The position numbers were made by a program, and so were the translations under genes. The notes beneath the pieces are model-generated. The model did not search any database, was not told where the DNA came from, and worked only from the letters and a program-made list of their open reading frames with translations. A stretch of DNA of 64,000 bases. Source: Methanohalophilus portucalensis. GTDB lineage: Archaea > Halobacteriota > Methanosarcinia > Methanosarcinales > Methanosarcinaceae. Below are positions 15,917-43,069 of this stretch, one piece after another; the stretch's first letter is position 1, and each line of letters begins with the position of its first letter. The stretch covers positions 347,213 to 411,212 of the forward strand of contig NZ_CP017881.1 of the NCBI RefSeq assembly GCF_002761295.1. The letters are read 5' to 3'.

Positions 15917-15988
15917 GCCTCGGTGGCTTAGGGGTGTAGTGCGTCCTTGGTAAGGACGAGGTCGCGGGTTCGAATCCCGCCCGAGGCT
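15917..15988 (+). tRNA. tRNA-Thr (anticodon GGU)
   Basis: 72 nt; 7-bp acceptor GCCTCGG/CCGAGGC; anticodon stem CGTCC/GGACG with loop TTGGTAA; T-arm GCGGG-TTCGAAT-CCCGC; no encoded CCA. Confidence 0.85.
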
Positions 15989-16034
15989 TTAAACTTGCAG
16001 TACAAAGCCCTCCTGCCTTGAATGGTCAAGGAAG

Positions 16035-17183
16035 GTGGGAAGAATGTCTGTACTCTATGATACGGAAAGAAGGCTCAAGTCTTCAGAGAGACGTATTGAA
16101 AATTCGAAATTTTCTGAACGAGATAAAAACCTCCTTTTTTCTTACGAAGCTGATCTTTTTGTAGACGGGCTTGGTGAATGTCGAGTTCTTAAATATCTGG
16201 ATCAATTGTATCGATTACGGCTCTGGCTAGATACTGATTTTGAGTTGGCCAAAGAGAACGATCTAAAGATACTTGTCGGCTACATACAGAGAAGGGACGT
16301 ATCTGCCTCTACAAAGAGGGATTATAAGATATGTCTTCGAAAGTTTTACCGCTGGCTGTACAATGATGATTCTGCACTAAATTGGATCAAGATCAAAAAC
16401 AAGGTCAATGAATCGAAAATTCCTGAAGAATTGCTGACAGAGGAAGAAATTCTCAGACTCATCGAAGTGGCTGATCATCCTAGGGACAAGGCAATCATCG
16501 CTACTCTCTATGATACTGGTGGAAGGATAGGCGAAATCAGCACACTTCAGATAAAACACATCAATTTTGACGAATATGGGGCACAGCTTGTTCTGAATGG
16601 AAAAACGGGTATGCGAAGAGTAAGGGTTGTATTTTGTGTACCATACCTATCATCCTGGCTTGATATTCATCCAGATCGAGAAAATCCTGATTCTTATGTG
16701 TGGATTGGTGTAGGGTCTATGGGAAAAGGAAAACCCTTACGGTATGCTGCTTTCCGTGCGTTGCTAGGACGATTGAAAAAAAAGCAGGGATTAAAAAGCG
16801 AATCTATAATCACCTTTTCAGGCACAGCCGATGTACTGAACTAGCGCAGCATCTTAGCGAGTTTCATCTGGAAGTCATATGGGTTTGGTGTCTGGTTCCG
16901 ATATGTCCAGTGTTTATGTCCATCTTATCTGGAAGGAGGAAATGCGTTATTATCTGTGGTATTCTATCTATCTAGAAGAAAAAAAGTATCTACAGGATGT
17001 ATTTCTGATACATTACAAATTAGTCGATATACGTTACGCAAAATATTGATTGAATTGAAAGAGAGGCAATGGATAAAAGAAACACGACCAATAAATAAGA
17101 GAAAAAATCAGTCTTTCTGCCAACTTCTAGTTTCAAATGATGTTATCGATGAGTACTATGATAATCAAAGGCAAGAGAAATAG
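16035..17183 (+). pseudogene. tyrosine recombinase/phage integrase, disrupted by at least two frameshifts
   Basis: N-terminal SAM-like domain in frame 1; AGIKKRIYNHLFRHSRCTELAQ (HxxR box) in a second frame; putative catalytic Tyr segment in a third; first shift at A8 run 16776-16783 (A9 restores frame). Confidence 0.7.
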
Positions 17184-17727
17184 GAAATCATATAGGAACT
17201 GCTAACTTTTAAGTTTCATGTACAAAAAAATAAAGGATGTAGGGAAAGAATTATCAGTTAAATTCTTCCCCTTTATTTCACATGGAAATTAATTGTTTGA
17301 TGAATTGCCTGGCAGTGGTTCCCCAGCAAGTTGCAGGATTGTTCGAGCTACAGCTCTTTCCCAGGGATTCGAATTGCCATCTCCACTGGCATCCATGTCA
17401 ATAATTTCCTTGTACTGTTCGTATATTTGTTGCGCTTTTGCCTTTGTTTCAGGCTTGATTGGAGTTTGCATAATATTACCTATTTATTTTTTATAGGTCA
17501 TACTCAACAAACCTCCACGATATTCATAATACCTCTATATCCATTAATGAGAATATTATATGTATTATTTATAATTAAACCAATATATTAATTGTCTAAT
17601 ACAGTAATGAGAGACTAAATGACCCTTTCTTTTTACTTGGAATTATATAATGAGAATAGACTTTGTATACGAAAGAAAGGAGGTATGATGATGTTACATA
17701 CCCCTCAAAGAGACATCTATAGATTAC

Positions 17728-20700
17728 TCAAGTCCTTTTAACCTGGATAATGAACAGTGTCACAATCAACATGAAGATACTTAAGAGACTGCTGAATCCC
17801 GGTGTTTGATCGGACTCCATTTCTGGAGTTTGCTCAACATTTTCTTCTTCCACACCTTCATCAATTGTCTCTTCCGATGTAGGGGTGGTTTCTGCAAGTG
17901 ATTCTTCATCCTCAGACACTGCAGATATTGCAAATGGTGAGAATCCGGGAGTTTCAGCCTCGAAGTAGATGAAGCCGTCATCCTCATCGGTCTGGGTGGT
18001 GGAAAGTTTGTTCCATATCCCATCGCTGTAATGGAACAGTGCAACTTCTGACGCATCAAATCCATTGTTCGCCAGCCATTCTTTATCCACCCTGAAGCCT
18101 ATGACAGAGTCTTCCACTTTGTCATCTCCAAAGGCAGCATTACCAACCCAGATATTCAGGTTCTGGTAAACTTCACCCGGAGCATCCTCATCCACAAGAG
18201 CGGAAGTATCTTTCAACACTTCTATCAATGTGCTGATCTGACCTGCATTGGTAACGCCTGTGAACTGGATATAGGAAATATTGCATTTTTCCTCACCGAA
18301 TTCATATCTGGCAGTTTCACCAGGAGCAATCTTACATGTCTGTGCAGCCTTTGTCAGAATGTTCTCAAAGGCTTCACCGGTGTTGCCACCGCCTCCGCCA
18401 CCACCGCTGCTGGAGGAACCTCCACTGCTACCAGGTTTGGTTTCTGTGCCCTCACCAGGAGCAATGGAGAATATTGTGGTGAATGTGGCATTATTTCCTG
18501 CAGCATCAGCAACTATAACTTCAGCCGTGTAGTCACCTGTATCCAAACCGGTGGCATTGTAAGCAGCATAGTTTCCGGTAATTTCCAGATCATCACTAGC
18601 ACTTATCTCATTACCATTGAACTTGAAAATAATCGAACTGACATTTATGTCACTTGCTGCATCACTGTAATTGAATCTGATGTTAACAGATGTCGTATCT
18701 TCATCAAATTTTGTTCCATCTTCTGGGGTCACATCATCAAGTATCGGAGGTGTCTTATCATCCGCCATGGCACCATAGGTGGAGAAATGGTTAACAGTTG
18801 CAACCCAGTATTCAACATCATCAATTGTTTCTACTGAAGTACTGAAAGGTTCCCACTCATCGCTTGTTTCATTATAATAACGAATGGTAACATCCTCTAC
18901 AGCCACCCCTTCTGGCAATAGACTCATATTGACAGGTATCCTGATTGTGGCATTGGTAAGGTTGGTTTGCAATTCTTTTCCAAAATTCACATCAATGAAA
19001 TGTAAACCTACAGAACCATTTGTTACATTGGCAAGAGGCTTATCACTTTCAGTCACCGTTATGTTAGATTTTGTGTCATTGTTGGTCCTGAAATCAATGG
19101 TCGTTCCAGATTGCTTGCTGGTGAAATTGGCAGTATTATTTACCGTTTCAATCCTTTCGATATGCATTGTTGAATTGCCAACTCCTACATTGCCTGCAAC
19201 ATCAATACCAGTTACATTAATGTTGAAATCTGAACCTCCAAGATTAAAGAAACCTGACCATTTACTTGCGATTTTACTCAATTCAACTTCATCAGCATTT
19301 ACATCGACTACTGGAGTATCATCAAGACATTCTGAAGCTGATATATTGACTATGCCATGTGTTTCGTTATATACAGAAGATACAGGATATAAGGACGGAG
19401 CTTTGCGATCCAGCAGCACAGTCTTTGAAGCAGTGATAAAATTTGTGTTCAATGCTGCATCTGTAACGGTTGCAGTGACCGTATATTTGCCATCATTCGG
19501 GATTGTCGTGAGATCAAATTCCGCAGTCCATTCACCATTGACAAAAGATGCCTCCACAACTCTGTGGAAACTTGTGAATTCAGAATCAAGGGTAAATGAA
19601 AGGGCAGATACATTGCCAGGAGTGCCGTCTGCTGTAGCATTTACTTGAAGAATTGAATTTGCATGAACGATTTCTCCTACAGTATTTGAACCGGTGATTT
19701 CTGTAATACTGACCGTGGGTTCAGTATTATCCACGACTACACTGACATTTGCCGAAGCAGTATTATCTGAAGTGTCACTGCTATTCACAAACAGCCAGTA
19801 AGTACCACTTGGTACTTCAGCACCATTACTGAAAGTTGCATTCCAGACATATTCCCAGGTTGCACCGTTTGCAACATCATCTGTGACAGTCAGATTGGTA
19901 ACATTCTGACCCTCGGAATCCTGAATTACAAATTCAGTAATTGCAGGATGATTATCAGTGCTGTTTAGGCGTATGGTTACAGGATTATGGATACTGACAT
20001 TTTCTATAGGCGTAGCACTTATATTGACTTCAGGTGCCTGATCATCTACTATTTCCAGAGTTTCTGAAACAGGATTGGACCATGCTCCATCATCATCCTG
20101 TACACTGAATGAAATGGTATGTGTGCCCGGTGAAAGATCAGAGATACTGAAACTGGAGGAAGCATGCAAATGACCATCGATACTGGAAGTCCAGTTGTAT
20201 CCAACAATATTACCATCAGAATCAGTGCCTGAACCAGTGAAACTAACAAGGTTACCTTCGGTGGCAGGATTCGGAGTAATAGAATCGATTTTTGAAGTTG
20301 GCATAACATTGGGTTTTTCGTTAATTTTCAATGTTGTTGAATCCGATTCAGACCATGCACCGTCATCATCCTTTGCACTAAAGCTGATAGTGTGAATTCC
20401 GCTTGAAAGGTCTGAAGTCGTAAAACTGGGTGATGTACCTATTATTACTTCATCTTCTAAATTGGATGTCCAGGAATATTCAGTAATTGTACCATCCGAA
20501 TCTTCTCCCAATCCTTGGAAAACAATAGTGTCACCTTCATTTGCAGGATTTGGACTTATAGAAGTAATGACAGATGTTGGCAACTTATTGGGTTCAGAGG
20601 GAGTATTAATGCTTAATATAACTAAACCATTATCTCCATCATTTACATAGGCATGATTACCAGCAACCGTAATTCCATCTGCATAACCTGCATTGTTATA

Positions 20701-22491
20701 GTTATCCAATAGTACTGGATTTATAGAATCGCTTATATCTAAAATTGAAAGTTCTTCATATCCAGAAGATACATAAGCATAATCTCCTTCGATTGCTATA
20801 TCAGTTGTAGGAGTGATATCGAATGAATAATAGGTTTTCACAATTTCAGGGTCTGAAGGTTTACTTATGTCCATTATAGCTAACCCTTCATATCCATCAG
20901 CGATGTATGCATAATTTCCGTTAACAGCAATACCTTCTGCAGCACCACCATTTGTTTTACAGTTTCCTGCAATCGAAGGTGAAGCAGGATTACTGACATC
21001 CACCGCCACAAAACCATCATCACCATTGCTTATAAAGGCATAGTTATCTGAAATTGTAATTTGTGGATCATAACCTATCGGACCTATCTCAAGACTTTCT
21101 TGTAATTCAGGTGAATAGGAACTTGTGATATCTATAATGGAAAGTAGCAAAATACCAGAACCATCATTTTCCATTAAATAGGCATAATTGTCTCCAACAG
21201 CAACATATCTTGCATAACCATTGGTTTCACAATTACCTATTTGTTGTGGGGACATAGGATTACTTATGTCTAAAATCACAAAGCCATTATTAGCATCAAC
21301 TAAATAGGCACAATTGCCTACAATCGTGAGGTCTAAGAATTGGTTATTTTCATCATAAATTGATAATATTTCAGGTGATGTGTTATCTGTTAGGTTTACG
21401 ATTGCAAGACCATTCTCCTCATCAGCTATATAGGCATAATTTCCAGAAATTTCTACATCTTGCACAGATAGACTCGCTTCATAAAGACCTCTGAATTCAG
21501 GGGATTCGGGGTTACTGACATCTATAATTGAAAGACCTTTATTATGATCAGCAATGTAGACATGATTGTCAAATATGTCTATATTCACCGCCCTGTCGGC
21601 ATCGTAAATCCCAGCAAGCACGGGTGAAGAGGGATTATTGATATCCAAAATAACAAGCCCATTATGATCATCAGCTATATAGGCATAATTTCCAGAAACT
21701 TCAATATCTTCTGCATTATTATTATTGAAGGCATAATTGGTATGCTCGCCTGCATAAGACGGAGATTCGGGATTACTTACATCCAAAACTAAAAGTCCAT
21801 TGTCATCATCAGCTACGTAGGCATAATTTCCAGAAATGTCAACACTTAATGAGTTTCCCGGGGTAGTGTAAATCCCCTTAAACAATGGTTCTTTCGGATC
21901 ATTTATATCCAGAATCACAAGATCACTATAATTTGTTGCATATGCATAGTTACCATCAACTGTAACATCAAATAAATAACCAGAATCTGTATAACTTCCT
22001 GCAGCGAAAGGATTTGTTGGGTCACTTATGTCTATAATTATCATGCCATCATCATCAAAAGAACAATGGGCTTCATTGCATACATAAGCATAATTTCCAT
22101 CAACTGAAATATCAGTTGCAAAATTTCGCCATCCAAGATAAACACTTCCTGTGCTCGAAGGTGAAAAGGGATCACTGATGTCCATAATAACGAGTCCACT
22201 TTCACCATTAGCTATATAGGCATAATTACCTGAAATGGTGACATCGTTTACCAGAGATGAAGTCGTAAACCTGCTTATTTCATGAGGGTTGGCTGTATCA
22301 CTTATATCAAGAATTACAAAATCCTGGCCCTGTCCAGCATAGGCATGATCTCCAGAAACTTCAACAGTATCCCATGTACCCCCTAGATGGGACTCAAAAT
22401 CCAATTCTATTTCATTAGCGGTACCAGTAAATGAACTTACCATTAAGAACAACAATAGAGCCAAAATTGCGACATATATATTTTTATTCAT
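17728..22491 (-). CDS. giant cell-surface protein with LVIVD beta-propeller repeats, PKD domains and PGF-CTERM archaeosortase anchor
   Basis: signal peptide (start at MNKNIY); >10 GLVILDIS/GLAIVN LVIVD-type repeats; PKD-like YxWTS motifs; Gly/Ser linker; C-terminal PGF plus hydrophobic plus KR. Confidence 0.75.
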   Translation of the reverse strand: MNKNIYVAILALLLFLMVSSFTGTANEIELDFESHLGGTWDTVEVSGDHAYAGQGQDFVILDISDTANPHEISRFTTSSLVNDVTISGNYAYIANGESGLVIMDISDPFSPSSTGSVYLGWRNFATDISVDGNYAYVCNEAHCSFDDDGMIIIDISDPTNPFAAGSYTDSGYLFDVTVDGNYAYATNYSDLVILDINDPKEPLFKGIYTTPGNSLSVDISGNYAYVADDDNGLLVLDVSNPESPSYAGEHTNYAFNNNNAEDIEVSGNYAYIADDHNGLVILDINNPSSPVLAGIYDADRAVNIDIFDNHVYIADHNKGLSIIDVSNPESPEFRGLYEASLSVQDVEISGNYAYIADEENGLAIVNLTDNTSPEILSIYDENNQFLDLTIVGNCAYLVDANNGFVILDISNPMSPQQIGNCETNGYARYVAVGDNYAYLMENDGSGILLLSIIDITSSYSPELQESLEIGPIGYDPQITISDNYAFISNGDDGFVAVDVSNPASPSIAGNCKTNGGAAEGIAVNGNYAYIADGYEGLAIMDISKPSDPEIVKTYYSFDITPTTDIAIEGDYAYVSSGYEELSILDISDSINPVLLDNYNNAGYADGITVAGNHAYVNDGDNGLVILSINTPSEPNKLPTSVITSISPNPANEGDTIVFQGLGEDSDGTITEYSWTSNLEDEVIIGTSPSFTTSDLSSGIHTISFSAKDDDGAWSESDSTTLKINEKPNVMPTSKIDSITPNPATEGNLVSFTGSGTDSDGNIVGYNWTSSIDGHLHASSSFSISDLSPGTHTISFSVQDDDGAWSNPVSETLEIVDDQAPEVNISATPIENVSIHNPVTIRLNSTDNHPAITEFVIQDSEGQNVTNLTVTDDVANGATWEYVWNATFSNGAEVPSGTYWLFVNSSDTSDNTASANVSVVVDNTEPTVSITEITGSNTVGEIVHANSILQVNATADGTPGNVSALSFTLDSEFTSFHRVVEASFVNGEWTAEFDLTTIPNDGKYTVTATVTDAALNTNFITASKTVLLDRKAPSLYPVSSVYNETHGIVNISASECLDDTPVVDVNADEVELSKIASKWSGFFNLGGSDFNINVTGIDVAGNVGVGNSTMHIERIETVNNTANFTSKQSGTTIDFRTNNDTKSNITVTESDKPLANVTNGSVGLHFIDVNFGKELQTNLTNATIRIPVNMSLLPEGVAVEDVTIRYYNETSDEWEPFSTSVETIDDVEYWVATVNHFSTYGAMADDKTPPILDDVTPEDGTKFDEDTTSVNIRFNYSDAASDINVSSIIFKFNGNEISASDDLEITGNYAAYNATGLDTGDYTAEVIVADAAGNNATFTTIFSIAPGEGTETKPGSSGGSSSSGGGGGGGNTGEAFENILTKAAQTCKIAPGETARYEFGEEKCNISYIQFTGVTNAGQISTLIEVLKDTSALVDEDAPGEVYQNLNIWVGNAAFGDDKVEDSVIGFRVDKEWLANNGFDASEVALFHYSDGIWNKLSTTQTDEDDGFIYFEAETPGFSPFAISAVSEDEESLAETTPTSEETIDEGVEEENVEQTPEMESDQTPGFSSLLSIFMLIVTLFIIQVKRT

Positions 22492-22966
22492 CTTCTTTCC
22501 TACTTTATATTTGCTCAGTTTGTATAATTTCACTTCAAATTTATTTTTTGGAAGCAGACTTTATAGAGTTTAACTATTAATAAAAGTTACTCTTTAAAAA
22601 ATAATTATGATAACTCTATAGTAGCCCTTTCAACTAGTAAAATATTGTTTTAACAAGGAAAAGTTCCCACTGTGTGATTTGGGCTAAATCAAGCACAAAG
22701 AGGATGAATGTTTTTCAGGTTGGGAAAGTGGAACTCACATTAAATTTGTGATTTAATGGCATGTCAAACAATTATCTAAATTTTGTCTATACAGCTATAT
22801 CTATAGCTGGCAAATTACGTCTTCCAATCTACAGTGAAAATTATACCAAACGAAAATATACTCAATACCAGTTAATTACATTGTTATCTCAAAGAGTATT
22901 ATACGAATAAGGACTATAGATATGTTGCTGAATTTATTGATTTAATGCATTGAATTCAATTCAAGA

Positions 22967-23576: not shown

Positions 23577-23972
23577 TTAAAGAATTAACCATGGCATAAG
23601 GCCTAATAATATAAGTAATACAATATAGAAAAAAATGTCCCTGCCACTCGAATACTTATGGGGGATTTCATTCTTTTTCATCTTCAAAGCTGTTGTATAA
23701 GCGTCGAATATATTGTATACCCAAATAATCATGGGGATGATAAAAGGAAATCCATAAAAGGAAGATACCGACATTAAAAAAGCTATACTGTAAGCTTTTA
23801 AATATTCACCATTGTAAACTTGCCCGGAACCGGCTATAACAATAGACCATATTAATGCATATATTGGTGTTTTCTTTTTAGTTCGACCTGTTTCATTTAC
23901 TTTAACACCACAACCAGTACAATATTCTTTATCTTCTAATTTTGTGCCACATACAGAACAATAATTTTGCAT
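23577..23972 (-). CDS. zinc-ribbon membrane protein
   Basis: N-terminal CxxC...CxxC followed by 3 predicted TM segments. Confidence 0.4.
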   Translation of the reverse strand: MQNYCSVCGTKLEDKEYCTGCGVKVNETGRTKKKTPIYALIWSIVIAGSGQVYNGEYLKAYSIAFLMSVSSFYGFPFIIPMIIWVYNIFDAYTTALKMKKNEIPHKYSSGRDIFFYIVLLILLGLMPWLIL

Positions 23973-24327: not shown

Positions 24328-25701
24328 TTGATAGCAGGTGATTGTATTAGTATTAAAAAAATAATCATAGTAAATGTTCTATTGCTAGCTCTCTTAATTG
24401 GTACTGCCTCTGCTTCTAACACCGGTCCAATTGAAGAAAAATGGAACATTACATTTGATGGACAAGATGATGATCATATAGCTTCTATTATAAAATCAAA
24501 CTCTGAAGGATACATTGTATCTGGAAATATGGGATTGGATCCCATTAGTTCTGACCAAGATGGATTTTTATATGAAATCGACTCAGAGGGGGAAATATTA
24601 TGGAGAGAAAAATTTGGAGGAAACCAACGGGATTCACTTTCAGCGGTTTTTCAGGCTGATAAGCAAAATTATATAGCCGTTGGAAATACTATTTCTTTTG
24701 GATCACCGTCTACCCGGTCTACATGGATAATAAAAGTAGATAATGATGGAAATGAAATTTGGAATAAAACCATTTTACAGGATGTTTCGACCATAATTAG
24801 TTCCGGGCAAAAAACTTCAGATGGAGGTTTTGTCCTTGCAGGAATGCGTGCTCCTCTAAGAACTGCTGGTGGGAATCTAGTAGGATTGCTAATCAAAACA
24901 GACTCTGAAGGAAATGTAGAATGGTCAAAGGATTTTGGAACAGGGCAAGTCCGTACCTATGATTGTTTTTATTCAGTAAGGCAAACTCCTGAAGGAAACT
25001 ACATTTTGTCTGGAACTACCCAATCTTTTAGTTCAGGGAATGTAGAGGATGGATGGTTAGTAAAAGTCGATTCAAATGGCAATGAATTATGGAATAAATC
25101 ATTTGGTGGAAAAGAGGTCGATTTCCTGGATTCAGTTATTGTCTCTCCAGATGGTGACTACATTGCTTTGGGTAGAAGCAAACAATATGGTGAATCACTC
25201 TTCAATGCGTGGGCAGTGAGGACCGATAAGAATGGGAATCTCCTTTGGGAAAAACGATATTTTGACCATTCAGATTCTTATTTTTCTTCTATTGAAAAGT
25301 CTCCAGATGAAAACTACCTGGTTACAGGTTCAGTTGGAAAAGTTCCAAATGGCTCAGTACAAGCTTCCTTTTCAGCAAAAAGTTATGAAGCTGTCCTGAT
25401 GAAGATAGATGGCGATGGAAATTCATTGTGGTCAGAGAATTTTGATGGATATCAAACTTCCTCATTTAGTTCTATTGCAGTGGATGATGATTCCTATGTT
25501 GTAGCAGGAAGTGCAAAATTGAATGATTCGGGCAATTCTGATGGCTTAATAGTTACATTCAATGAACCTGCAATGGTTAAACAATCTGCTTCAGGGGAGG
25601 ATACTTCAGAAAGTCAACCAAATCAGGAAAAAAGCCCCCTTTCGGTGACATTAGCTGCCATTTGTCTTGCAGTTGCATTCATTTTTGCAAAGAGACCATG
25701 A
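24328..25701 (+). CDS. secreted beta-propeller repeat protein with C-terminal TM anchor
   Basis: signal peptide; about 8 repeats with G[NE]x[LI]W[SN][KE] signature every ~48 aa; C-terminal hydrophobic segment plus KRP. Confidence 0.5.
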   Translation: MIAGDCISIKKIIIVNVLLLALLIGTASASNTGPIEEKWNITFDGQDDDHIASIIKSNSEGYIVSGNMGLDPISSDQDGFLYEIDSEGEILWREKFGGNQRDSLSAVFQADKQNYIAVGNTISFGSPSTRSTWIIKVDNDGNEIWNKTILQDVSTIISSGQKTSDGGFVLAGMRAPLRTAGGNLVGLLIKTDSEGNVEWSKDFGTGQVRTYDCFYSVRQTPEGNYILSGTTQSFSSGNVEDGWLVKVDSNGNELWNKSFGGKEVDFLDSVIVSPDGDYIALGRSKQYGESLFNAWAVRTDKNGNLLWEKRYFDHSDSYFSSIEKSPDENYLVTGSVGKVPNGSVQASFSAKSYEAVLMKIDGDGNSLWSENFDGYQTSSFSSIAVDDDSYVVAGSAKLNDSGNSDGLIVTFNEPAMVKQSASGEDTSESQPNQEKSPLSVTLAAICLAVAFIFAKRP

Positions 25702-30488: not shown

Positions 30489-30518
30489 TTACCACCCCTC
30501 CAATCAATTATTACTGAT

Positions 30519-31285: not shown

Positions 31286-31358
31286 TGGAAAACGTTATAT
31301 ATAAGACTTATTCAATATACTGCTAAAGTACTGGATACAATTTAGGGGTTAATTTAAA

Positions 31359-32642: not shown

Positions 32643-32775
32643 ATTTTTATATTATGTCTTTTTTTCAGGAGTAAAATAAAAATATAGAAGACACATCTAT
32701 GTATAAATTATATGGTAACAAAATATATTGTCTCCAGTTGGGTTTTATATGAAATGGGATGAATTTATTCAACAT

Positions 32776-35343
32776 ATGAGTAGAGTAATGTTTATCTTAC
32801 TCTTTTTTTTCGTATTGACAGGCTTTTTCAGTTCAACTGCATCTGCTGAAAGCGTTACATTTTCAGACATGGGTATATCTTCTCAGTTTACTTCAGGAGA
32901 TGAGGGTACCACACCAACCGGGACATTTCATATAGATTCAGTAAATCAGCAGGCCGAAATCACTGTAGATACTTATCGTCCTTCTTATGCTTCAATAGTA
33001 ACAATTTATGTAAATGACGCACCAGTGAAATCTGCATCTGTTAGTGATGAAGAAACAGTTTCGGTTACATTATCATCTGATAATTTGAAAACTGGTGAAA
33101 ATACCATATTTATTAAAGCAGTTGCAGATTTCGGAAATTTTGACAGTGGAAATGATATGGTTATCTACGGAACTTCAAAAATAACCATATCTGAGGATAA
33201 TACAAATGCATATGAATCTACTGAAAGCGTTAGTTTTTCAGATATGGGTATATCTTCCCAATTTACTTCAGGAGACGAAGGTACTACACCAACAGGTACA
33301 TTTCATATTGATTCAGTAAATCAGCAGGCCGAAATCACTGTAGACACTTATCGTCCTTCTTATGCTTCAATAGTAACAATTTATGTAAATGACGCACCAG
33401 TGAAATCTGCATCTGTTAGTGATGAAGAAACAGTTTCGGTTACATTATCATCTGATAATTTGAAAACTGGTGAAAATACCATATTTATTAAAGCAGTTGC
33501 AGATTTCGGAAATTTTGACAGTGGAAATAATATGGTTATCTACGGAACTTCAAAAATAACCATATCTGAAGAAGTTATTCAAGAAAACGTCGATTCCACT
33601 TCTCAATCGGATACAGAGGATTCAGGTGTAGATTCTACCTACACAAATTCTAACTCAAATAAGGATATAACAAATGTTGAATCCTCAAGTTCTGATACAG
33701 AAGAAGGGACTGTCGATGATACATCTCAAACTACAAATTCTGAAGAAGAAAGTAAAGATTCGACTACTGGTAGTTCTGAAGTCGAAGATGATACCACTGT
33801 TCATAAATCAGAAAATTCAAATACATATGAAGAAAGTAATTCAAACTATATTTATGAAACAGAAAATAAAAATAATGAAAATGAATCAAATGATGGTTTC
33901 CCTATTTCTGGGATATTATTCTTAATGTTAATAATCGGTGGGGTTCTTGTTGCTAAAAAGAACAATAATTCTTCTCAAAAAAATAATGATCAAAGTCCCC
34001 CAATGAAAGATTCTTTTAATTCCGTAAGTAAATCAGATTCATTTTATGCAGGACAACAAGCTACAGCTGCAACAAAAGAAAAAGGAATTATTATAAAATC
34101 GGCGTATAATTACGAAGGCGCAAAAATCATTTATAAACTAAGTATCAAAAATTCTACAACGGATGCAATTAGTGATATAAAAATTTCTCTTTTTGTACCA
34201 GATGTATTTCTTATAAATGAGACACACAAATTAATTTCTTTACTAGAACCAAACGATAAAAAAAGTGCCACATTTGAAATAAGACCGACTGGTGAATGTG
34301 GAGATTGCAACATTTCGGGTAATATCAATTATTACGACCATAGTCAGAAAAAACGTCAATATATGGATATCGAAACAAAATCTCTCAGTATTGTATGCCC
34401 TATGTTGAGAAATAAGGATATAACTAAAACAGAATGGAGAACTGTGATTAATTACTTGGTAAGTACAGAAGAAACAACAAAAGAAATCGATATACCGGCT
34501 GAGACACTCTTAGACATGGTATCGCGGATTGTTGAAGATATGAATATGTTCATGCTTGAACCAGAAATAAGTTCCACTCCAAATATGTTCAATGGTGTTG
34601 CAAGATTCTATGCTGAAGGAGTGAAAGACCTGAAATATGCTGCACAGATAGAGGTCGTGGGTGGTTCTAAGAAATCCAAACTCATCTTGAAAGCCTGGGC
34701 TGAAAAAGAGGAAGCATTAACAGGTTTCTATCATGGTATTTTAGATGAACTTGAAAAGCGTACTCAAATAAAAGGAAGTATCAACGAAAACATCATTCAG
34801 AACTATTACCATTATGGAGATAAAGTTGATACAAAAATAAATGATTCACTTATACAAAGATCATTTAATAAAGATGTTCATGGTTCAATATCAGATGATA
34901 AAGATGAATATCAAACGGCTTCACCAATTGAAGATTATAAGATAAAATCTGAGTCATATGATGAATTCAATTACGATGGAGTTTACACATACCTTGTAAA
35001 TATTGCCCAAAAAGCCTGTGATCATAGGTCTAAAATCCTTAATAATCTGGACGTTCCCTCTTATCGAAAATCTCTCTACGAAAAAGGTATTATTGTTACC
35101 TATGGAGATGTTCTGAAACAATTTGGGAAAATTCCTAACAATCCTTCACATCAACAACAATTGTATCCAATACTTGATGAAATCAATAAAAACAATAAAC
35201 CGATATTGCTGTCAGCACTTGTAGTAAACAAAGAGGAATACCTTCCTAGTGAACAATTTTTCAAAAAATGGACAAACAATTCGTGGGAATCGGAATTAGA
35301 AAAAATCTGGGATTCTTACTGCGATGAAAATGGTGGCTTTTAA
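32776..35343 (+). CDS. single-pass TM protein of the island paralog family (copy B) with tandem-repeat extracellular N-domain
   Basis: signal peptide; two 125-aa tandem repeats; S/T/D/E-rich linker; TM helix; cytoplasmic module shared with copies A and C (EIRPTGECGDC...IVCP; NDSLIQRS). Confidence 0.6.
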   Translation: MSRVMFILLFFFVLTGFFSSTASAESVTFSDMGISSQFTSGDEGTTPTGTFHIDSVNQQAEITVDTYRPSYASIVTIYVNDAPVKSASVSDEETVSVTLSSDNLKTGENTIFIKAVADFGNFDSGNDMVIYGTSKITISEDNTNAYESTESVSFSDMGISSQFTSGDEGTTPTGTFHIDSVNQQAEITVDTYRPSYASIVTIYVNDAPVKSASVSDEETVSVTLSSDNLKTGENTIFIKAVADFGNFDSGNNMVIYGTSKITISEEVIQENVDSTSQSDTEDSGVDSTYTNSNSNKDITNVESSSSDTEEGTVDDTSQTTNSEEESKDSTTGSSEVEDDTTVHKSENSNTYEESNSNYIYETENKNNENESNDGFPISGILFLMLIIGGVLVAKKNNNSSQKNNDQSPPMKDSFNSVSKSDSFYAGQQATAATKEKGIIIKSAYNYEGAKIIYKLSIKNSTTDAISDIKISLFVPDVFLINETHKLISLLEPNDKKSATFEIRPTGECGDCNISGNINYYDHSQKKRQYMDIETKSLSIVCPMLRNKDITKTEWRTVINYLVSTEETTKEIDIPAETLLDMVSRIVEDMNMFMLEPEISSTPNMFNGVARFYAEGVKDLKYAAQIEVVGGSKKSKLILKAWAEKEEALTGFYHGILDELEKRTQIKGSINENIIQNYYHYGDKVDTKINDSLIQRSFNKDVHGSISDDKDEYQTASPIEDYKIKSESYDEFNYDGVYTYLVNIAQKACDHRSKILNNLDVPSYRKSLYEKGIIVTYGDVLKQFGKIPNNPSHQQQLYPILDEINKNNKPILLSALVVNKEEYLPSEQFFKKWTNNSWESELEKIWDSYCDENGGF
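32848..33597 (+). repeat. 375-bp direct tandem repeat, 2 copies, in frame within the 32776 gene
   Basis: copies start at 32848 and 33223; last ~270 bp nearly identical, first ~100 bp carry ~12 substitutions. Confidence 0.8.
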
Positions 35344-35842
35344 TACACTTTAGATGAAAGTTATAGTTTGATGCGGATATGATGGGAGCTGCACAATTCC
35401 GTAGTAGCCCTGTTTCAAGAATTGTCTCGGTTGCGGCACCAAAGTACCCATTGGAGCACATTTTTGTGGCCATTGCGGGACCAAACTTGACTGAGAATCT
35501 AAAACTGAAGATACGTAAATAGATGATGGGAAATTAAGGAAAATGTTCAATAAATTAGCCGAAAATAATTGCTTTAAAAAAGCAGCAGTTAATCGTAATT
35601 CTCCCTGCTTCATTATCCATTTTTTATTTTTCAATGAAAATATACTATATTAGGTGTAAATTTATTCGTAAAAATTAGACCATATGAAAATTAATTATTT
35701 TTCACTACAGACCAAAAGAAAGCCCATAAATACAATGATTATATTATTTGTTTAAACTGGAATTTATTTTAAATCTGGTCTAAATAACGGCTTAAAAATA
35801 AGATTGCAATATCATCCATTCCATTGTCTAGGAGATATAAGT

Positions 35843-38152
35843 ATGACAAAAGAACAGCAGCCGATTGCAGTGGATGAAGCTTATATAATTCGAGATAATC
35901 AGTTTTGGTATAATGACTGCTCATTTGCTGATTTTGTGAGAGATAAAGCAGCCATTGTTGTAAATATAAGTGGTCTTGGGATACGCACTCTTGAGCATGC
36001 TGAACGAGGAATCGATGGACGTTTAACATCCTCATATAAAATCCCACCTGTTGATCAGAGATGGTGGAAAGCACATCGTGGTGAAGCTGTTCGACTGGAG
36101 TTACTAAGTATTGAAAATGAAGGGGTGAAACCATCCACATTTCCTCTTCATGTTGCCAGAGAAACTGAATTTTACCAAGGTTACATCCGTTTCAAGATGT
36201 CCGTGACCAATAAGAGCTCCAGCCTTATTGCAGACGTAGTTCTTGATTTTACTTTTGATGAAAAACTCTTGAATATTGCCGATTATGGTGAATATCCTGT
36301 GAAGAACGGGAAAATCATATTGGGAAATATCTATGGAGGCAAATCTAAGTCAATTGCCATTCTTTTCGACCCATTGACCTGTACCAAAGCTGCAGATATT
36401 AACTGTCATATTATTTATGCAGACCATGAAGGCAGAATGTCTTCAACCTTCATGAAGCCTAAAGAAATCAGTGTGATCTGCCCCATCATGAAGACTGAAT
36501 CCGATATTAATATCGGAAGACTCAAGGAGTTCATTGCGAATCTTCCAACAAAGGACAGTCGTGTTTACGAAATTAAGAGTGGATTCAACATCGACAAATT
36601 AACTTCTCTTGCTCGGGAAGTCGTGGAAAAGTATGATGTTCGCCATGTTCGTAATCTCCACACACGTGATGGAAAAATCTGTGAGATCTGGTATTATGGA
36701 AACACAAAAGTTACAAAAGATGCAATCGTCATCAAAATCTCTGTTTCCACGGAATATTCTACGATGGAACTGTTTGCTGCCACTAGAAATGCAGAAACAC
36801 TCACTGGTCTACTTGCTGAAATTGGTCGTGATCTGAAAAATGCAGTTGAATCAAAAACAAGTGGTAAAGGCGGGATTATTAATGTCACCATAAAGGATTC
36901 GATTGTTCAACGCAGTAATTTGCTGGATATGTGCGACATTGATGGCACATGTGACGTTAACATTGTCATCGAGGATTCCGTAGTCGAACGCACTAGCATT
37001 GCCACAGTGAATGAAGAAGTAAAGCATCTTCACAGGGAAAAAGAAGAACTTGAGTGGCAAAGAAGAGAGGTTGAGAAGAGAAAAGTTCAGGAAACTGCTC
37101 GTCTGAAAATACCCGAAGAAAAGGAGATCACGATAAAGGATGCAAAAAGAAAGCGCACGCATTCTGCTTATTCATCTCAAAAAGTAAAATCTTCATCCCA
37201 TTCAACACAACTACAAAGCCTGTCTCCCCAAAAAAAGTCAGGCAAAAAAGTGTTGATATCTTTATTGTTCATACTTTTGCTCGGTGGCCTCTGGATGGGG
37301 CTAGGTGGCAGTGAAAATTCAACTACAATAAATTCACAAAATATGGATGATTTGGATGTGGTTTCTTTTACGAACACAGTAGAATCTGATGAAGATTCGA
37401 CTTCTTCCAGTTTGGAAAATGCGGGTAATGAGCATAATACGATTTCATATGATGTTGCGGATTTTAAAACCTACACCAACTCCATAGGCATGGAATTCGT
37501 GCTCATTCCTGCAGGTGAATTTATGATGGGTTCTCCTGAAGATGAAGAGGGACGAGAAAATAATGAAGGCCCAATTCATAAAGTGACCATCGAGAAAGCT
37601 TACTATCTTGGTAAATACGAAATAACTCGAGAACAATGGTTTGAAGTTATGGGTGATACTTCTTCGAATATTAGTAAACCCAATTACCCAATAGTAGATA
37701 TTTCATGGTATGAGGTTCAAAATTTCATTAAAAAATTAAATGAAAAAGAAGAAACAAACAGGTACCGTCTCCCTACAGAGGCAGAATGGGAGTATGCATG
37801 TAGGGCTAATACAAAAACTAAGTACTATTTTGGAGATGATGAAAATAAACTTTCAGGGTATACTGAATTATTGGGAGGAAGATATCAAGTTGGAAGAAAA
37901 AAACCTAATCCATGGGGGTTGTACGATATGCATGGCAATGTTTGGGAGTGGGTACAAGATGATTATCATAAAAATTATGTAAATGCTCCAAATAGTACTA
38001 TTGCTTGGAAAAGTAAAAATAGTAATTTCAAAGTGATACGTGGTGGTGCTAGTGGCCTATTGCCCAACCATTATAGGTCTGCAGTACGTACTGGTGAGAA
38101 AAGCGGCTCAAATTATTGCAATTTAGGATTTCGACTTGTTATGGAGTCGTGA
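35843..38152 (+). CDS. single-pass TM protein of the island paralog family (copy A) with C-terminal extracellular FGE-sulfatase (SUMF1-like) domain
   Basis: GGAG RBS 8 nt upstream of ATG 35843; shared module (CPIMK; IKDSIVQRSNL; IEDSVVERTSI); TM at LISLLFILLLGGLWMGL; FGE motifs RLPTEAEWEYA, HGNVWEW, RGGAS. Confidence 0.65.
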   Translation: MTKEQQPIAVDEAYIIRDNQFWYNDCSFADFVRDKAAIVVNISGLGIRTLEHAERGIDGRLTSSYKIPPVDQRWWKAHRGEAVRLELLSIENEGVKPSTFPLHVARETEFYQGYIRFKMSVTNKSSSLIADVVLDFTFDEKLLNIADYGEYPVKNGKIILGNIYGGKSKSIAILFDPLTCTKAADINCHIIYADHEGRMSSTFMKPKEISVICPIMKTESDINIGRLKEFIANLPTKDSRVYEIKSGFNIDKLTSLAREVVEKYDVRHVRNLHTRDGKICEIWYYGNTKVTKDAIVIKISVSTEYSTMELFAATRNAETLTGLLAEIGRDLKNAVESKTSGKGGIINVTIKDSIVQRSNLLDMCDIDGTCDVNIVIEDSVVERTSIATVNEEVKHLHREKEELEWQRREVEKRKVQETARLKIPEEKEITIKDAKRKRTHSAYSSQKVKSSSHSTQLQSLSPQKKSGKKVLISLLFILLLGGLWMGLGGSENSTTINSQNMDDLDVVSFTNTVESDEDSTSSSLENAGNEHNTISYDVADFKTYTNSIGMEFVLIPAGEFMMGSPEDEEGRENNEGPIHKVTIEKAYYLGKYEITREQWFEVMGDTSSNISKPNYPIVDISWYEVQNFIKKLNEKEETNRYRLPTEAEWEYACRANTKTKYYFGDDENKLSGYTELLGGRYQVGRKKPNPWGLYDMHGNVWEWVQDDYHKNYVNAPNSTIAWKSKNSNFKVIRGGASGLLPNHYRSAVRTGEKSGSNYCNLGFRLVMES

Positions 38153-39493: not shown

Positions 39494-41338
39494 ATGAGTA
39501 AAGACGACCACAAGATAGACGCAGATGATCGGAACATTTTCGATGTGCTCAATGAACGCAAATACACAGTCGATTACTTTCAAAGAGAATACAGCTGGGA
39601 ACAAAAGCACATGGAGCAACTCATTACTGACCTGACTTCCACCTTTCTCGATGTTTACACAGAAGGAGATCCCAGAACAGCAGTCGAACATTATAACAAC
39701 TATTATTTAGGTCCTTTTGTGGTCAGCAGCAAGAATAGTATGAAAAGTATAATCGACGGACAGCAACGATTAACCTCCTTAACACTGTTTCTTATATACC
39801 TCAACCATATACAGAAGGAGCTCGGCATGAGTGAATCAATTGAGTCCCTGGTATTCTCTGAAAAATATGGACAGAAATCTTTTAATATTCAGGTACCTGA
39901 ACGCCAGGCTTGCCTTGAAAAGCTCTTTATTAAAGGCTGGTATGAAATTCAACCCGAAGATGATGAATCGACCATCAACATGGTAGAACGTTATTCTAAT
40001 ATTGAGCAAGCTTTCCCTGAGGAGATAAAAGGTACAGCTTTCCCCTACTTCCTTGACTGGCTGAAATACAACGTGATACTTGTAGAAATCACAGCTTACT
40101 CTGATGACAATGCCTACACTATTTTCGAGTCAATGAACGACAGGGGATTGAACCTAACATCTACTGAAATGCTCAAAAGTTACATCCTTTCACGCTTTAG
40201 TGATCAAACAGATCGGGCGAAAGCCAATCGTTTTTGGAAAGAATCAATACAGAAACTTCACAAACATAACAAAGATGAAGATCATCAATTCTTTCAGTCT
40301 TGGCTTAGGAGCCAATATGCCGATACAATACGTCAGGGTAAAATGGGATCTTCAAATGAAGATTTTGAGAAGATTGGGACTCGTTTCCACAGTTGGGTTC
40401 GTGATAATCTTTCAAAAATGAAACTCAACCCAGAATCGCCGGATGATTTCCGAGAATTTGTACATATAGAGATGAAATATTACCTGAAAGCATATTTGAA
40501 TATTCTAGATGCACAAAAAGAAGAGAAAAAAGGATGGGAGCACGTTTTTTATATTAAACACTGGGGAATCGCTCCCTCTCTTGCTTTTCCACTGATGCTT
40601 GCTCCACTGAAATCAACCGATTCTCCAGACATTACACGTCAAAAAATAAATGAAGTAGCTCGTTACATTGAAACTTTCACTGTTAAACGTTCCGTCAATT
40701 TCCGGAAATTTGGTGCTAGCTCAATCCGCTACACAATGTATACTCTGGTGAAAGAACTTAGAGGAAAAGAACTTGACTCTCTGAGATTATGTTTGCAGAA
40801 TAAACTCAGTGAAATGGATGAATCATGGGATGGAATCGCTCATTTCAGGATGCATGGACAGAATCGTAGATTTATTAAGTTCCTATTATCTCGGATTACT
40901 GGATTTATTGAGCAGCAATCAGGCTATTCTACAAATTTCTCGACATATTACATCAATAATGGATCAAAGCCCTATGAGGTAGAGCATATTTGGGCAGATA
41001 AATTTGTGGAACACCGAGATGAGTTTGAGCAACAACATGAATTCGAAAGATACCGTAATCATATAGGAGATCTAGTACTGTTGCCACAAGGTACGAACCA
41101 ATCTTACGGAGATAAGCCTTACTCTGAAAAACTCGAACACTACTTAAAGGAAAATTTGCTGGTCAAATCTTTGCACCCCAAAGCATATGAAAACAATCCC
41201 AATTTTGTTAGTGCTACTCATAAATTGGAAATTAATTTCAAGCCACACAAATCATTCACCAAGAAGGATATTGATGAAAGACAAGCATTGATTCAGAATA
41301 TTTGTGAGGTGATATGGGGAGATGGAGAGAGATCCTGA
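39494..41338 (+). CDS. DUF262/DUF1524 (GmrSD-like) predicted DNA-modification-dependent nuclease
   Basis: N-terminal ParB-like DGQQR motif; C-terminal His-Me finger-like region (EVEHIW ... HIGDLVLL...N). Confidence 0.7.
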   Translation: MSKDDHKIDADDRNIFDVLNERKYTVDYFQREYSWEQKHMEQLITDLTSTFLDVYTEGDPRTAVEHYNNYYLGPFVVSSKNSMKSIIDGQQRLTSLTLFLIYLNHIQKELGMSESIESLVFSEKYGQKSFNIQVPERQACLEKLFIKGWYEIQPEDDESTINMVERYSNIEQAFPEEIKGTAFPYFLDWLKYNVILVEITAYSDDNAYTIFESMNDRGLNLTSTEMLKSYILSRFSDQTDRAKANRFWKESIQKLHKHNKDEDHQFFQSWLRSQYADTIRQGKMGSSNEDFEKIGTRFHSWVRDNLSKMKLNPESPDDFREFVHIEMKYYLKAYLNILDAQKEEKKGWEHVFYIKHWGIAPSLAFPLMLAPLKSTDSPDITRQKINEVARYIETFTVKRSVNFRKFGASSIRYTMYTLVKELRGKELDSLRLCLQNKLSEMDESWDGIAHFRMHGQNRRFIKFLLSRITGFIEQQSGYSTNFSTYYINNGSKPYEVEHIWADKFVEHRDEFEQQHEFERYRNHIGDLVLLPQGTNQSYGDKPYSEKLEHYLKENLLVKSLHPKAYENNPNFVSATHKLEINFKPHKSFTKKDIDERQALIQNICEVIWGDGERS

Positions 41339-41631
41339 TGATATGAATGAAACTGGAACCAGAACCTAATATATGGTCCTGCACTGAAAGGAGTAGATAG
41401 GGTTTGTCAAGGCAAGTCGCATGCTTTCTGTATTACAATATCAATTAGGTATAATATTGAAATTGGTAACCATCATGGTGAACCTGTAATTGCAGATTGC
41501 ATGATGGTATTTTGTAACACTAAAATATGGAATTTTAATTGCTGCAGGGATCGATTTTGGTGGAACAAGGAAGACCAAAAACCCCTATCGAATCATATAT
41601 TTGAGACAATAATTTTATATTTCGGGATATA

Positions 41632-42441
41632 ATGAATTCAAAAATAGACACACTAAGCAATCTACTTCCAAAAGTTGCTGATATATTCATTTCTGAAAAT
41701 CCAGTAATCTATGTAGGTACCGATTCTGTTATGGTAATCGGTGACATTCATGGTGACTTAAAAGCCCTTGATCTCATTCTAAAAATGCAAAAGAAAATCA
41801 ATTGTGAAAGAATGATTTTTCTCGGGGATTATATTGATCGTGGACCTAATTCTGTTGAAGTTTTGAATAAGCTGTTTAGATTAAAAATTGCAGACCCAGA
41901 TAAAATAATTCTACTTAGGGGCAACCATGAAACTGCAGAAATGAACTATTGTGGTGGATTTTATGATGAACTCGGAAGAGATGATTCATTGTTTGTCCTG
42001 GCAAATCATGTATTTGAAGAGATGCCAATAGCTGCAATAATCTTTAATCGAATATTTTGTGTGCATGGAGGAATTCCGGGGTCTCAAAAAATACATAGCA
42101 TAGAAAAGTATCATTCATTTGAATATATCTGGAATGATCCATCTGAATTAAATGGGATGCATTCGTCTGCAAGAGGCGATGATATCAAGGAATATGGGCC
42201 TGATATCACTTCGGATTTTCTGCAAATCAATGGGTTGGAATTGATTATAAGAGGCCATAGCGCTCTAAAAGAGGGATACAAATGGTATTTCAATGAAAAA
42301 TTGCTATCGCTTTTTTCAACCCCAAATTATCGTAGTCTATTCAATGTTGCGGCATTTGCAGTAATTAAAGATGAGAACACGAAGATAGTTGTATTCGGAA
42401 CTTCAGACGGAAATGATTACTCTTTATTAGATTCAGTTTAA
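41632..42441 (+). CDS. PPP-family Ser/Thr protein phosphatase (metallophosphoesterase)
   Basis: GDIHGD, GDYIDRG, GNHE motifs. Confidence 0.75.
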   Translation: MNSKIDTLSNLLPKVADIFISENPVIYVGTDSVMVIGDIHGDLKALDLILKMQKKINCERMIFLGDYIDRGPNSVEVLNKLFRLKIADPDKIILLRGNHETAEMNYCGGFYDELGRDDSLFVLANHVFEEMPIAAIIFNRIFCVHGGIPGSQKIHSIEKYHSFEYIWNDPSELNGMHSSARGDDIKEYGPDITSDFLQINGLELIIRGHSALKEGYKWYFNEKLLSLFSTPNYRSLFNVAAFAVIKDENTKIVVFGTSDGNDYSLLDSV

Positions 42442-43042
42442 CTTTGCTCTGATAGAAAAATGCCTTTCTGTTGTAAATCGGCCAATTGATACTACAAATA
42501 AATAGAAATCAACGTATATGATTGATTATGCCTTTCAAGAATGAATAAATTTTTCTTCAAAATGCAGTTTGTCGAATCAGAAAAAGTGATTACTCGCTTT
42601 TCCTCTTCTAAGAACCGTAAGTTAAAGTTTCACTTATCTGAATATTATCTATTGTCATATCACACATATTTAGATCAAGTAATTTTAATTAGATTTTCCA
42701 CATTTCCAACCTCTCCTAACATGAGAATTCAAACTAAAAGGTTTACCAGATTTAACATCCTGCTTCATAGAATGCAAGGTGCCTTAAGAAAAACCATTTT
42801 CTTCCATTCAGAACAAGGCATATCAAGAACATTCTGGCTATAACCCTCTGAAATAGCCCTTTTAACCTCGCAGCAGAATTAATAAAATACTGTGACATGC
42901 ACTTCTCAAAATTCGTGTATATGAATACATTACGTGCAAGACGAAAACCTTTATATTTAAAGACCGCTAATTTACTTATACTAATGAATATTGCTTTGAC
43001 CATCAAAGCAGGTTCGGCTTTTGACTTGTACTGTGCGGGGCA

Positions 43043-43069
43043 ATCTCGCCCGAGGCTTTCTATTTCCAG
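43043..43069 (+). repeat. degenerate copy of tRNA-Thr 3' end (putative attR)
   Basis: aatctcgcccgaggcttt matches tRNA 3' end aatcccgcccgaggcttt at 17/18; preceded by gcgggg. Confidence 0.5.

Follow-up and report, generated by a model that had tools for sequence, protein, structure and literature searches.

A probable immobilised integrative element at tRNA-Thr carries mosaic cargo, including an ESCRT module, in Methanohalophilus portucalensis

In the methanogen Methanohalophilus portucalensis, some 27 kb of low-GC DNA, including genes of an ESCRT system, separates a tRNA-Thr gene from a helicase gene, which raises the question of how this DNA reached its site and whether it could leave again. 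We analysed a window of 64,000 nucleotides around it (NCBI RefSeq assembly GCF_002761295.1, contig NZ_CP017881.1, positions 347,213 to 411,212 of the forward strand; all coordinates below are those of the window). An earlier note on this DNA had proposed a 27-kb genomic island integrated at tRNA-Thr, with a decayed integrase and a degenerate right attachment site (attR). We conclude, with considerable confidence, that the segment from about 15990/16015 to 43059/43733 is the immobilised remnant of a tRNA-Thr integrative element whose interior is mosaic and whose site is a hotspot (Table 1). The proposed site-specific integration is upheld by this analysis; a single clean insertion is not, as the cargo is a mosaic held inside conserved ends.

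The tRNA-Thr gene named in the note was recovered at its claimed position by both ARAGORN and Rfam, the latter finding three tRNAs in the window and nothing else. Its 72 nt show no variation in four relatives, M. profundi, M. euhalobius, a metagenome-assembled genome (MAG) and strain RSK, which were found through the gene just upstream of the tRNA and with which the locus was compared; M. mahii, M. halophilus and M. levihalophilus lie outside this comparison. The 18-mer AATCCCGCCCGAGGCTTT that makes up the 3′ end of the tRNA (15973-15990) recurs a single time, in direct orientation and with one mismatch (17/18), as AATCTCGCCCGAGGCTTT at 43042-43059. The note had seen this recurrence, with its single mismatch, but had put it at 43052-43069, 10 nt too far to the right. 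Dinucleotide-preserving shuffles, searched with up to two mismatches, give an expectation of 0.01 such matches by chance, and none of 100 shuffles held two matches to the 18-mer. Both attachment (att) sites share an exact 13-mer, CGCCCGAGGCTTT (15978-15990 and 43047-43059), and when two indels are admitted the similarity extends over 43035-43075 and 15963-16005 with 32 of 42 positions identical, running from the 5′ T-stem GCGGG to around 15 nt beyond the end of the tRNA. A direct copy that reaches only 17/18, or 32/42 with two gaps, fits the degenerate attR that had been claimed.

Next to the tRNA lies the integrase. Its reading frame opens at 16035 (GTG) or 16044 (ATG), 46 nt past the tRNA end, and encodes Phage_integrase and SAM-like domains, the parts of which are now spread over three frames: residues 3-252 in frame +3 (16053-16796), the HLFRHSR motif in frame +2 (to 16888) and the catalytic tyrosine, within VYVHL, in frame +1 (16876-16926). 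Three-frame translation and tblastn with a 402-aa integrase from an IMG/VR contig (L012) agree that the last ~100 residues, including a Zn ribbon, are gone, and tblastn found no C-terminal integrase fragment at the right end of the island. A homolog search returned an intact ortholog (P0116; 388 aa, 96% identical) that matches positions 3-169 of the 172 in the Pfam integrase profile. It is encoded on a contig, L109, whose gene order (MJ0093, radical SAM, DUF5611, Rv2949c-like, tRNA-Thr(GGT), integrase) is the window's own neighbourhood. The two sequences are 94.5% identical up to 16932, where homology stops, and relative to L109 the window's integrase carries frameshifts of −1 near 16780, −1 near 16869 and +1 near 16927. 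The decay of the tRNA-proximal integrase, as described in the note, is therefore confirmed, in the form of three frameshifts and a lost C-terminus, and such lesions would be expected to leave the element incapable of autonomous excision.

Since integration leaves the ortholog at full length, the enzyme belongs to the classical integrases and not to the SSV-type ‘suicidal’ ones. A split integrase of SSV type was considered and rejected: the gene starts after the att core, and the ortholog reads continuously through 388 aa in the integrated state. More distant relatives extend this picture. A 62%-identical integrase (contig L112) directly follows tRNA-Thr(CGT); its P′ arm is conserved and its cargo is of type I restriction-modification, and ~100 nt upstream of a 52%-identical integrase from Methanosarcina an inverted fragment of the tRNA-Thr 3′ end was recognised by eye. 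Run in bacterial mode, ARAGORN called no tRNA beside the 52%-identical relative or beside a 45%-identical one from Methanolobus zinderi; upstream of the latter, an apparent intron-containing tRNA(CAT) can be made out by eye (L114 2810-2925). Together these enzymes, ~390 aa long and ending in a Zn ribbon, represent a putative tRNA-Thr-targeting integrase subfamily of the Methanosarcinales; among the characterised examples in the portion of the literature covered here, neither the subfamily nor its tRNA-Thr specificity was found. In two of the relatives, tandem paralogous integrase genes follow tRNA-Thr (L109 3821-4186 and L112 1775-2950), an arrangement which suggests accretion of elements at this site.

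The sequence flanking the two att cores also appears to belong to the element. On the left, the 24 nt that follow tRNA-Thr (AAACTTGCAGTACAAAGCCCTCCT) are common to the window, M. profundi and RSK, and the whole stretch from AAACTTGCAGTACAAAGCCCTCCT through a hairpin (folding z = −3.5 against shuffles) to the start of the integrase is conserved in front of the 62%-identical integrase, in another organism and beside a different tRNA-Thr gene, so that it forms part of the element's P′ arm or of an extended common core. On the right, 141 bp to the left of the repeat are shared with a population carrying different cargo (described below) and therefore constitute a conserved element arm. The two arms mirror one another imperfectly: 42996-43021 matches 16003-16029 in inverted orientation, as do TTGTACTG and CAGTACAA, and a match this good is reached by only 11 of 4942 random windows.

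Comparison with the relatives places the boundaries independently of the repeat. The M. profundi sequence runs collinearly as far as 16010-16014, the point to which left-hand homology with the island-free site of RSK also extends; a 0.3-kb unrelated spacer comes next, and collinearity resumes at window position 43734, so that a segment of ~27.7 kb is absent. The first gene after its spacer is the UvrD/PD-(D/E)XK helicase found at 43878 in the window. GC content is 35.9% in the island, 44.8% in the core and 43.6% in the helicase, and GC at third codon positions (GC3) is 0.20-0.39 in the island against 0.43-0.48 in the core. Both checks suggested in the earlier note thus come out in favour of an insertion: a related genome lacks the segment, with the caveat that it retains 24 nt of P′-like sequence, and GC and GC3 shift at the boundaries given by the M. 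profundi comparison. Contig RJJH01000015.1 (GCA_003722115.1) and other assemblies carry the island as well; several assemblies of the lineage have it in identical form, and it is present on every contig with an identical flanking protein. A metagenome search with the N-terminus of the helicase returned relatives of at most 73% identity, with no tRNA nearby.

At the same site, close relatives carry other genes. M. euhalobius shares the integrase remnant up to window position 16561, and the MAG up to 16501. The M. euhalobius locus (L003 10708-20479) consists of the truncated integrase followed by a CRISPR array (37-nt repeat GTTACCATTCCCTTTTATCACGGGTGCTTATGTCAAC), cas2, cas1, csm6 and RAMP genes, a CRISPR-Cas system of type III. 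In RSK, a 160-bp spacer of the M. profundi type is followed by ~1.5 kb (L002 11691-13247) that is 65-74% identical to the CRISPR-array region of M. euhalobius; a segment of ~1.3 kb is inverted between these two loci. Looking up a 42-aa Zn-ribbon open reading frame (ORF) at 43223-43351 led to a third configuration in a related population (L099-L108, from the JGI sample series that includes L109), in which window positions 42901-47017 are present at 94.5% identity together with the same degenerate tRNA fragment, the attR fragment being identical in contigs L099-L107. To the left of 42901, where the window has its own cargo, this population encodes a TIR-TPR protein, Hachiman (HamA with a DEAD helicase) and a PD-(D/E)XK protein. 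Three cargo sets at one site in close relatives identify the locus as a recurrently used hotspot at which cargo is swapped.

Several observations weigh against interpreting this locus as a remnant of a tRNA-Thr element. Outside its 13-nt core, attR is ~64% identical or less, compared with ~95% for the surrounding interspecies DNA. The right boundary from genome comparison, 43733, lies 674 bp beyond the end of the repeat at 43059. No pristine attB is present among the sites compared: M. profundi and RSK already carry 21-24 nt identical to the P′ arm, followed by unrelated spacer. Homology to the relative with the intact integrase ends inside the integrase gene (16932) and resumes at 42901, and the present cargo and the integrase may have arrived by different events. 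Finally, the inverted match between the arms is of moderate statistical strength (p about 0.002 against random windows). The diverged attR, the offset boundary, the lack of an attB and the homology gap between 16932 and 42901 lead us to an old attachment with conserved ends and a replaced interior. As for the 674-bp flank between repeat and helicase promoter region, it is kept beside the helicase in the related population and has no counterpart in M. profundi, just as M. profundi's own spacer has none in the window; it may be host flank or the remnant of an older element. We rejected the idea that its Zn-ribbon ORF (43223-43351) is the displaced integrase C-terminus: it lies outside the repeat and is kept by the helicase in a lineage with an intact integrase.

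The history that we propose would begin with a classical tyrosine integrase of ~390 aa recombining attP with the 3′ end of tRNA-Thr, presumably within CGCCCGAGGCTTT. Integration would have regenerated the tRNA at the left, put the integrase gene 46 nt beyond it and deposited a partial copy of the tRNA 3′ end at the right; in the reconstructed attP, the inverted arm repeats that flank CGCCCGAGGCTTT are putative integrase-binding sites. The integrase would then have gained three frameshifts and lost its C-terminus, so that excision by the element's own enzyme would no longer be possible, and the interior would have been replaced by recombination between related elements or through tandem integrations. 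The locus would thereby act as a tRNA-linked hotspot supplying accessory and defence genes.

The simplest alternative, a single recent insertion of an intact 27-kb element with all of its content arriving together, would explain why there are a single integrase and a single pair of att-like repeats, why GC is uniformly low from 16015 to 43059 and why several assemblies of the lineage have the same island. It is nevertheless unlikely, as the integrase bears three frameshifts and a truncation, the intact-integrase relative has wholly different cargo between 16932 and 42901, M. euhalobius shares the integrase remnant to 16561 only before continuing into CRISPR-Cas, and attR is old and diverged, yet identical in both cargo variants. 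Still less probable is that the region is ancestral to the genus, with deletions in M. profundi and RSK, a secondarily empty site and a repeat that is a relic. The 21-24 nt of P′-arm identity after the tRNA in those two genomes would suit the scar of a former element, but the GC and GC3 of the region lie 9-20 points under those of the core, three differing cargo sets occupy the site in close relatives, ESCRT-III homologs in other Methanohalophilus are reported only from M. levihalophilus, and the M. profundi spacer is unrelated sequence as opposed to a deletion junction of window DNA.

We regard two further explanations as highly improbable. An archaeal provirus could be suspected from an IMG/VR viral contig that encodes a 42%-identical integrase next to large proteins taken as structural by size alone; however, no virion or packaging gene was detected by a PHROG scan of 10 island proteins or by Pfam searches of the island ORFs, capsid, portal and terminase included, and the cargo (an ESCRT system, surface proteins and a restriction gene) is of cellular type. 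The 18-nt match might also have arisen by chance, or be a piece of some unrelated tRNA pseudogene, and not mark an element end; its 17/18 identity, its weak extension and its offset from the boundary seen against M. profundi could be cited for this. Against this stand the expectation of 0.01 matches per window, the direct orientation, a distance of less than 0.7 kb to the right boundary, which was mapped independently, the fact that a second island variant retains both the fragment and the adjoining 141 bp on the left, and an adjoining arm that mirrors the P′ arm.

The remnant of a tRNA-Thr element favoured here has close parallels among known systems. With classical elements (type II, pNOB8/SNJ2-like integrases; PMC8371274) it shares a recombinase gene by the att site, a tRNA 3′ target that is regenerated, a far partial copy, an integrase intact while integrated (in the L109 relative) and an att region that reaches beyond the tRNA, a feature which the same review (PMC8371274) records for archaea. 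It differs in that the window's integrase is a pseudogene and its attR degenerate. SSV-type integrases (PMC7253208, PMC8371274) are likewise archaeal tyrosine integrases acting on the 3′ part of tRNA genes, but their attP lies inside the integrase gene, which is split on integration, whereas the window's integrase starts after the att site. The tRNA-linked islands of bacteria and archaea detected by Islander (PMC4383910) and defence hotspots have in common with the locus an integrase by the tDNA, a displaced tRNA fragment, atypical composition, accessory or defence cargo and alternative cargo in relatives; the methanogen host, the ESCRT cargo and the conservation of the ends while cargo is swapped set the present island apart.

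Table 1. Features of the tRNA-Thr locus, its island and the adjoining flank
Feature	Position	Strand	Basis or remarks
tRNA-Thr(GGT), intact	15917..15988	+	ARAGORN; Rfam tRNA 62.2 bits; integration target, regenerated at left junction (attL)
attL core region: 3′ half of T-arm, acceptor 3′ strand and 24 nt past tRNA	15963..16014	+	
P′ arm with hairpin or inverted repeat (CCTCCTGCCTTGA..TCAAGGAAGGTGG)	16003..16040	+	DNA fold; L112 comparison
Tyrosine integrase pseudogene	16044..16932	+	Pfam Phage_integrase; three-frame translation; tblastn with L012 integrase; L109 alignment
Small winged-helix ORF, 75 aa	16956..17183	+	Pfam HTH_DeoR E = 0.002, below cutoff; weak
1601-aa secreted surface protein, 13 LVIVD repeats, PKD, Big, C-terminal anchor	17728..22533	-	Pfam LVIVD 1e-134, PKD, Big_3_3
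131-aa Zn-ribbon membrane protein	23577..23972	-	Read from sequence; DUF5683 weak
457-aa secreted beta-propeller protein, C-terminal membrane anchor	24328..25701	+	NCBIfam SBBP-repeat propeller 5.6e-14; weak propeller matches
164-aa protein, two Zn-knuckle modules, DSFIQRS motif, C-terminal transmembrane segment (TM)	25790..26284	-	Pfam RYYR-CCHC weak; motif scan
523-aa membrane protein: N-terminally shortened cytoplasmic adaptin-appendage-like domain, two DS[VL]VQR[ST], TM, ectodomain	26281..27852	-	BLASTP to 782-aa paralog 6e-13
391-aa coiled coil and C-terminal winged helix, the ‘CC + wHTH’ Meth_adaptin component	28103..29278	-	
Vps4-like ATPase, MIT-like N-domain and one AAA	29322..30488	-	Pfam AAA 1.4e-44; tblastn to Methanolobus
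ESCRT-III (Snf7-family), 187 aa	30519..31082	-	Family profile; Foldseek; Makarova list
51-aa ribbon-helix-helix protein upstream of ESCRT-III	31085..31237	-	71% identity to Methanolobus 51-aa gene (matches PF27540); RHH_1 weak
SPFH/Band-7 protein, coiled coil, C-terminal Zn ribbon	31359..32642	+	Pfam Band_7, Zn_ribbon; 55% identity to Methanolobus ortholog
871-aa membrane protein: signal peptide, duplicated ectodomain, TM, cytoplasmic appendage-like domain, DSLIQRS	32728..35343	+	53% identity to Methanolobus Mb_523
782-aa membrane protein: adaptin-appendage-like domain (IG sandwich and platform), two DS[IV]V[QE]R[ST], coiled coil, TM, extracellular FGE-sulfatase	35804..38152	+	
GmrSD-type (DUF262/DUF1524) type IV restriction-like defence gene	39494..41338	+	Pfam GmrSD_N, GmrSD_C; PADLOC HEC-06/Orf5/SspE-like
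PPP-family (calcineurin-like) Ser/Thr phosphatase	41632..42441	+	Pfam Metallophos 2e-29; PHROG NinI-like phosphatase
Right-end (P) arm	42901..43034	+	~94% identity with related island of different cargo; holds inverted copy of P′ motif
attR, degenerate direct copy of tRNA-Thr 3′ part	43035..43083	+	17/18 core; exact 13-mer
674-bp flank between attR and helicase promoter region	43060..43733	+	33% GC; 42-aa Zn-ribbon ORF

Within the island, an ESCRT module of ~12.4 kb (25790-38152) corresponds to the ‘Meth_adaptin’ system of Makarova et al. 2024 (PMC10936438), which comprises Vps4, ESCRT-III, two adaptin-appendage proteins and a protein with SPFH, coiled-coil and Zn-ribbon domains (SPFH-CC-ZnR). 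Its Table S1 lists the ESCRT-III (arCOG00454) and Vps4 (arCOG01307) proteins of M. portucalensis FDF-1T, and a role of the module in membrane remodelling or protein sorting is proposed there; a likeness of the system to the ancestral archaeal ESCRT machinery has also been proposed. The system type is accordingly one already described, and the new point is its island context.

The ESCRT-III assignment comes from the family as a whole. As a single sequence, and as a narrow family profile, the protein matches nothing significantly in Pfam or the PDB. A wide family profile searched against the PDB recovers Loki Vps20/32/60 (7e-8), Heimdall ESCRT-IIIB (4e-7), yeast Snf7 (3e-6), CHMP1B (3e-5) and CdvB (2e-4), Pfam Snf7 is matched by 8 of the 36 family members, and the top Foldseek matches are ESCRT-III proteins, individually not significant. 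The Vps4-like gene adjoins that of ESCRT-III, and its product is 67% identical to a Methanolobus protein over 385 aa in a single frame (tblastn). Its MIT match is weak (E = 0.034, profile positions 3-62 of 66), and by plain similarity its AAA domain is nearer to Cdc48-D2/PAN than to the CdvC model. The frame is open for 388 codons, beginning with a CTG (30486-30488, − strand) that aligns with the TTG start of the Methanolobus gene; the first canonical start, TTG 30209, is the one used by gene callers and gives a 295-aa protein with no MIT-like domain. The CTG may be either a non-canonical start or a sign of incipient decay. The neighbouring coiled coil–winged helix-turn-helix protein is 29% identical over its full length to Methanolobus Mb_422, matches MarR_2/DDRGK weakly at residues 323-378, and occupies the locus position of WP_013898572 of Methanosalsum zhilinae. 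The 51-aa ribbon-helix-helix protein is likely to be the operon regulator.

Three membrane proteins of the module have in common a cytoplasmic domain of ~250 aa, for which an AlphaFold2 model (pLDDT 81) was searched with Foldseek: the top 14 matches are all appendages of AP2 alpha/beta2 and COPI gamma, cover both subdomains and have E values of 6e-10 to 6.5e-7. A profile of the appendage family returned low-complexity noise only from the PDB. The 782-aa protein matches Pfam FGE-sulfatase at 7e-46; in the 871-aa protein, a 375-bp tandem duplication (32841-33569; 1.9 copies, 96% identical) doubles the extracellular domain. A short peptide, D-S-[IVF]-[IV]-[QE]-R-[ST], in most cases with N as the next residue, has six occurrences in the window (25892-25912, 27172-27192, 27232-27252, 34843-34863, 36896-36916 and 36974-36994), all of them confined to four of the ESCRT module's proteins. 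The peptide follows each appendage-like domain and is present, too, in the modules of Methanolobus (L008) and Methanoperedens (L010); no mention of it was found in the parts of Makarova et al. 2024 covered here. The D-S-[IVF]-[IV]-Q-R-S-N peptide could be a docking motif that couples membrane receptors to the MIT-AAA/ESCRT-III machine.

The reference Meth_adaptin locus of M. zhilinae, as presented in PMC10936438, has the same order and orientation: appendage (−), coiled coil–winged helix (−), Vps4 (−), ESCRT-III (−), SPFH-CC-ZnR (+) and appendage-TM (+). The window differs in having no ProX, a CTG in place of a start codon for its Vps4-like gene, a location within a tRNA-Thr island, and three appendage paralogs whose ectodomains (FGE-sulfatase, duplicated repeat and unassigned) stand in place of GOLD. 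No ORF between 23.5 and 38.2 kb matches ProX or another substrate-binding protein (SBP), and ProX is probably an accessory component.

Is the module itself mobile? Table S2 of PMC10936438 places an integrase of the XerC/D family beside rsmE (NC_015676.1 1366006-1367136), five genes upstream of the locus in M. zhilinae, and given this integrase the reference locus may also be island-borne; the words ‘horizontal’, ‘mobile’ and ‘island’ are absent from the main text of that paper. Named ESCRT-III homologs in Methanohalophilus come from M. portucalensis (100% identical) and M. levihalophilus only, a distribution which fits acquisition via the island. In Methanolobus bombayensis the same core lies beside genes for ribosomal proteins; no tRNA was found in that 20-kb locus, and none of its called genes is an integrase. 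A partial module is seen in Methanoperedens (ESCRT-III, two Band_7 proteins, a Zn-ribbon protein, an unannotated 513-aa protein and two sites of the DS motif). These loci indicate that the module is not always island-borne. We consider it doubtful that Meth_adaptin in the Methanosarcinaceae is a horizontally mobile accessory module carried on tRNA-targeting integrase islands in place of ancestral-type machinery; its position here on a low-GC island that sister species lack, and the XerC/D-family integrase of M. zhilinae, would suit such mobility.

The remaining cargo of the island is given in Table 1; ORFs at 22761-23347, considered as a decayed transposase, have no Pfam match and were dropped from that role. 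The earlier note had also stated that the island contains all the unusual genes of the window, which is true only in part, as low-GC, variable, defence-type DNA is also present at 46928-50641 and 51361-55518. The first of these belongs to a second insertion (46741-50833), a 3.7-kb McrB/McrC cassette (47200-50387, 34% GC) in the 3′ end of the helicase gene. It is flanked by a direct repeat of ~185 bp of that 3′ end (46741-46927 and 50642-50826; ~92% identical), the left copy of which finishes with codons derived from the element, the right copy running on into native downstream DNA; the cassette is absent from M. profundi and is accompanied by no integrase. The related population (L107 13764-18916) has, at this 3′ end of its helicase gene, McrBC in the opposite orientation together with an Mrr-type nuclease, and its helicase is called as two ORFs (699 and 339 aa). 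The differing cassettes mark this gene end as a hotspot for restriction cassettes.

The second stretch, 51361-55518, is of low GC, differs from M. profundi and encodes a PDC-S11 candidate defence protein (51515-52483, GC3 0.19), an ArsR-type helix-turn-helix protein, a CMD-family protein and a 466-aa secreted protein. On the other side of the island, 955 bp at 13045-13999 (31.5% GC), encoding a 188-aa secreted protein (13297-13863), are missing with identical breakpoints (13044/14000) in M. profundi, RSK, M. euhalobius, the MAG and L109; every contig of the M. portucalensis lineage has them. The entire interval from tRNA-Thr to tRNA-Met/Asn is variable.

Taken as an island, this locus represents routine biology: an integrase, a tRNA target and decay. 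Its close ortholog, intact and with recognisable att arms, is a possible genetic tool for methanogens. The Methanohalophilus hotspot, occupied according to lineage by ESCRT genes, by Hachiman and TIR genes or by type III CRISPR-Cas, explains part of the accessory genome. Among such antiviral genes, the ESCRT module may have an envelope or vesicle role tied to virus or stress defence, as opposed to housekeeping sorting, and the occurrence of a Meth_adaptin ESCRT system as island cargo bears on scenarios in which this machinery was inherited vertically from an archaeal ancestor.

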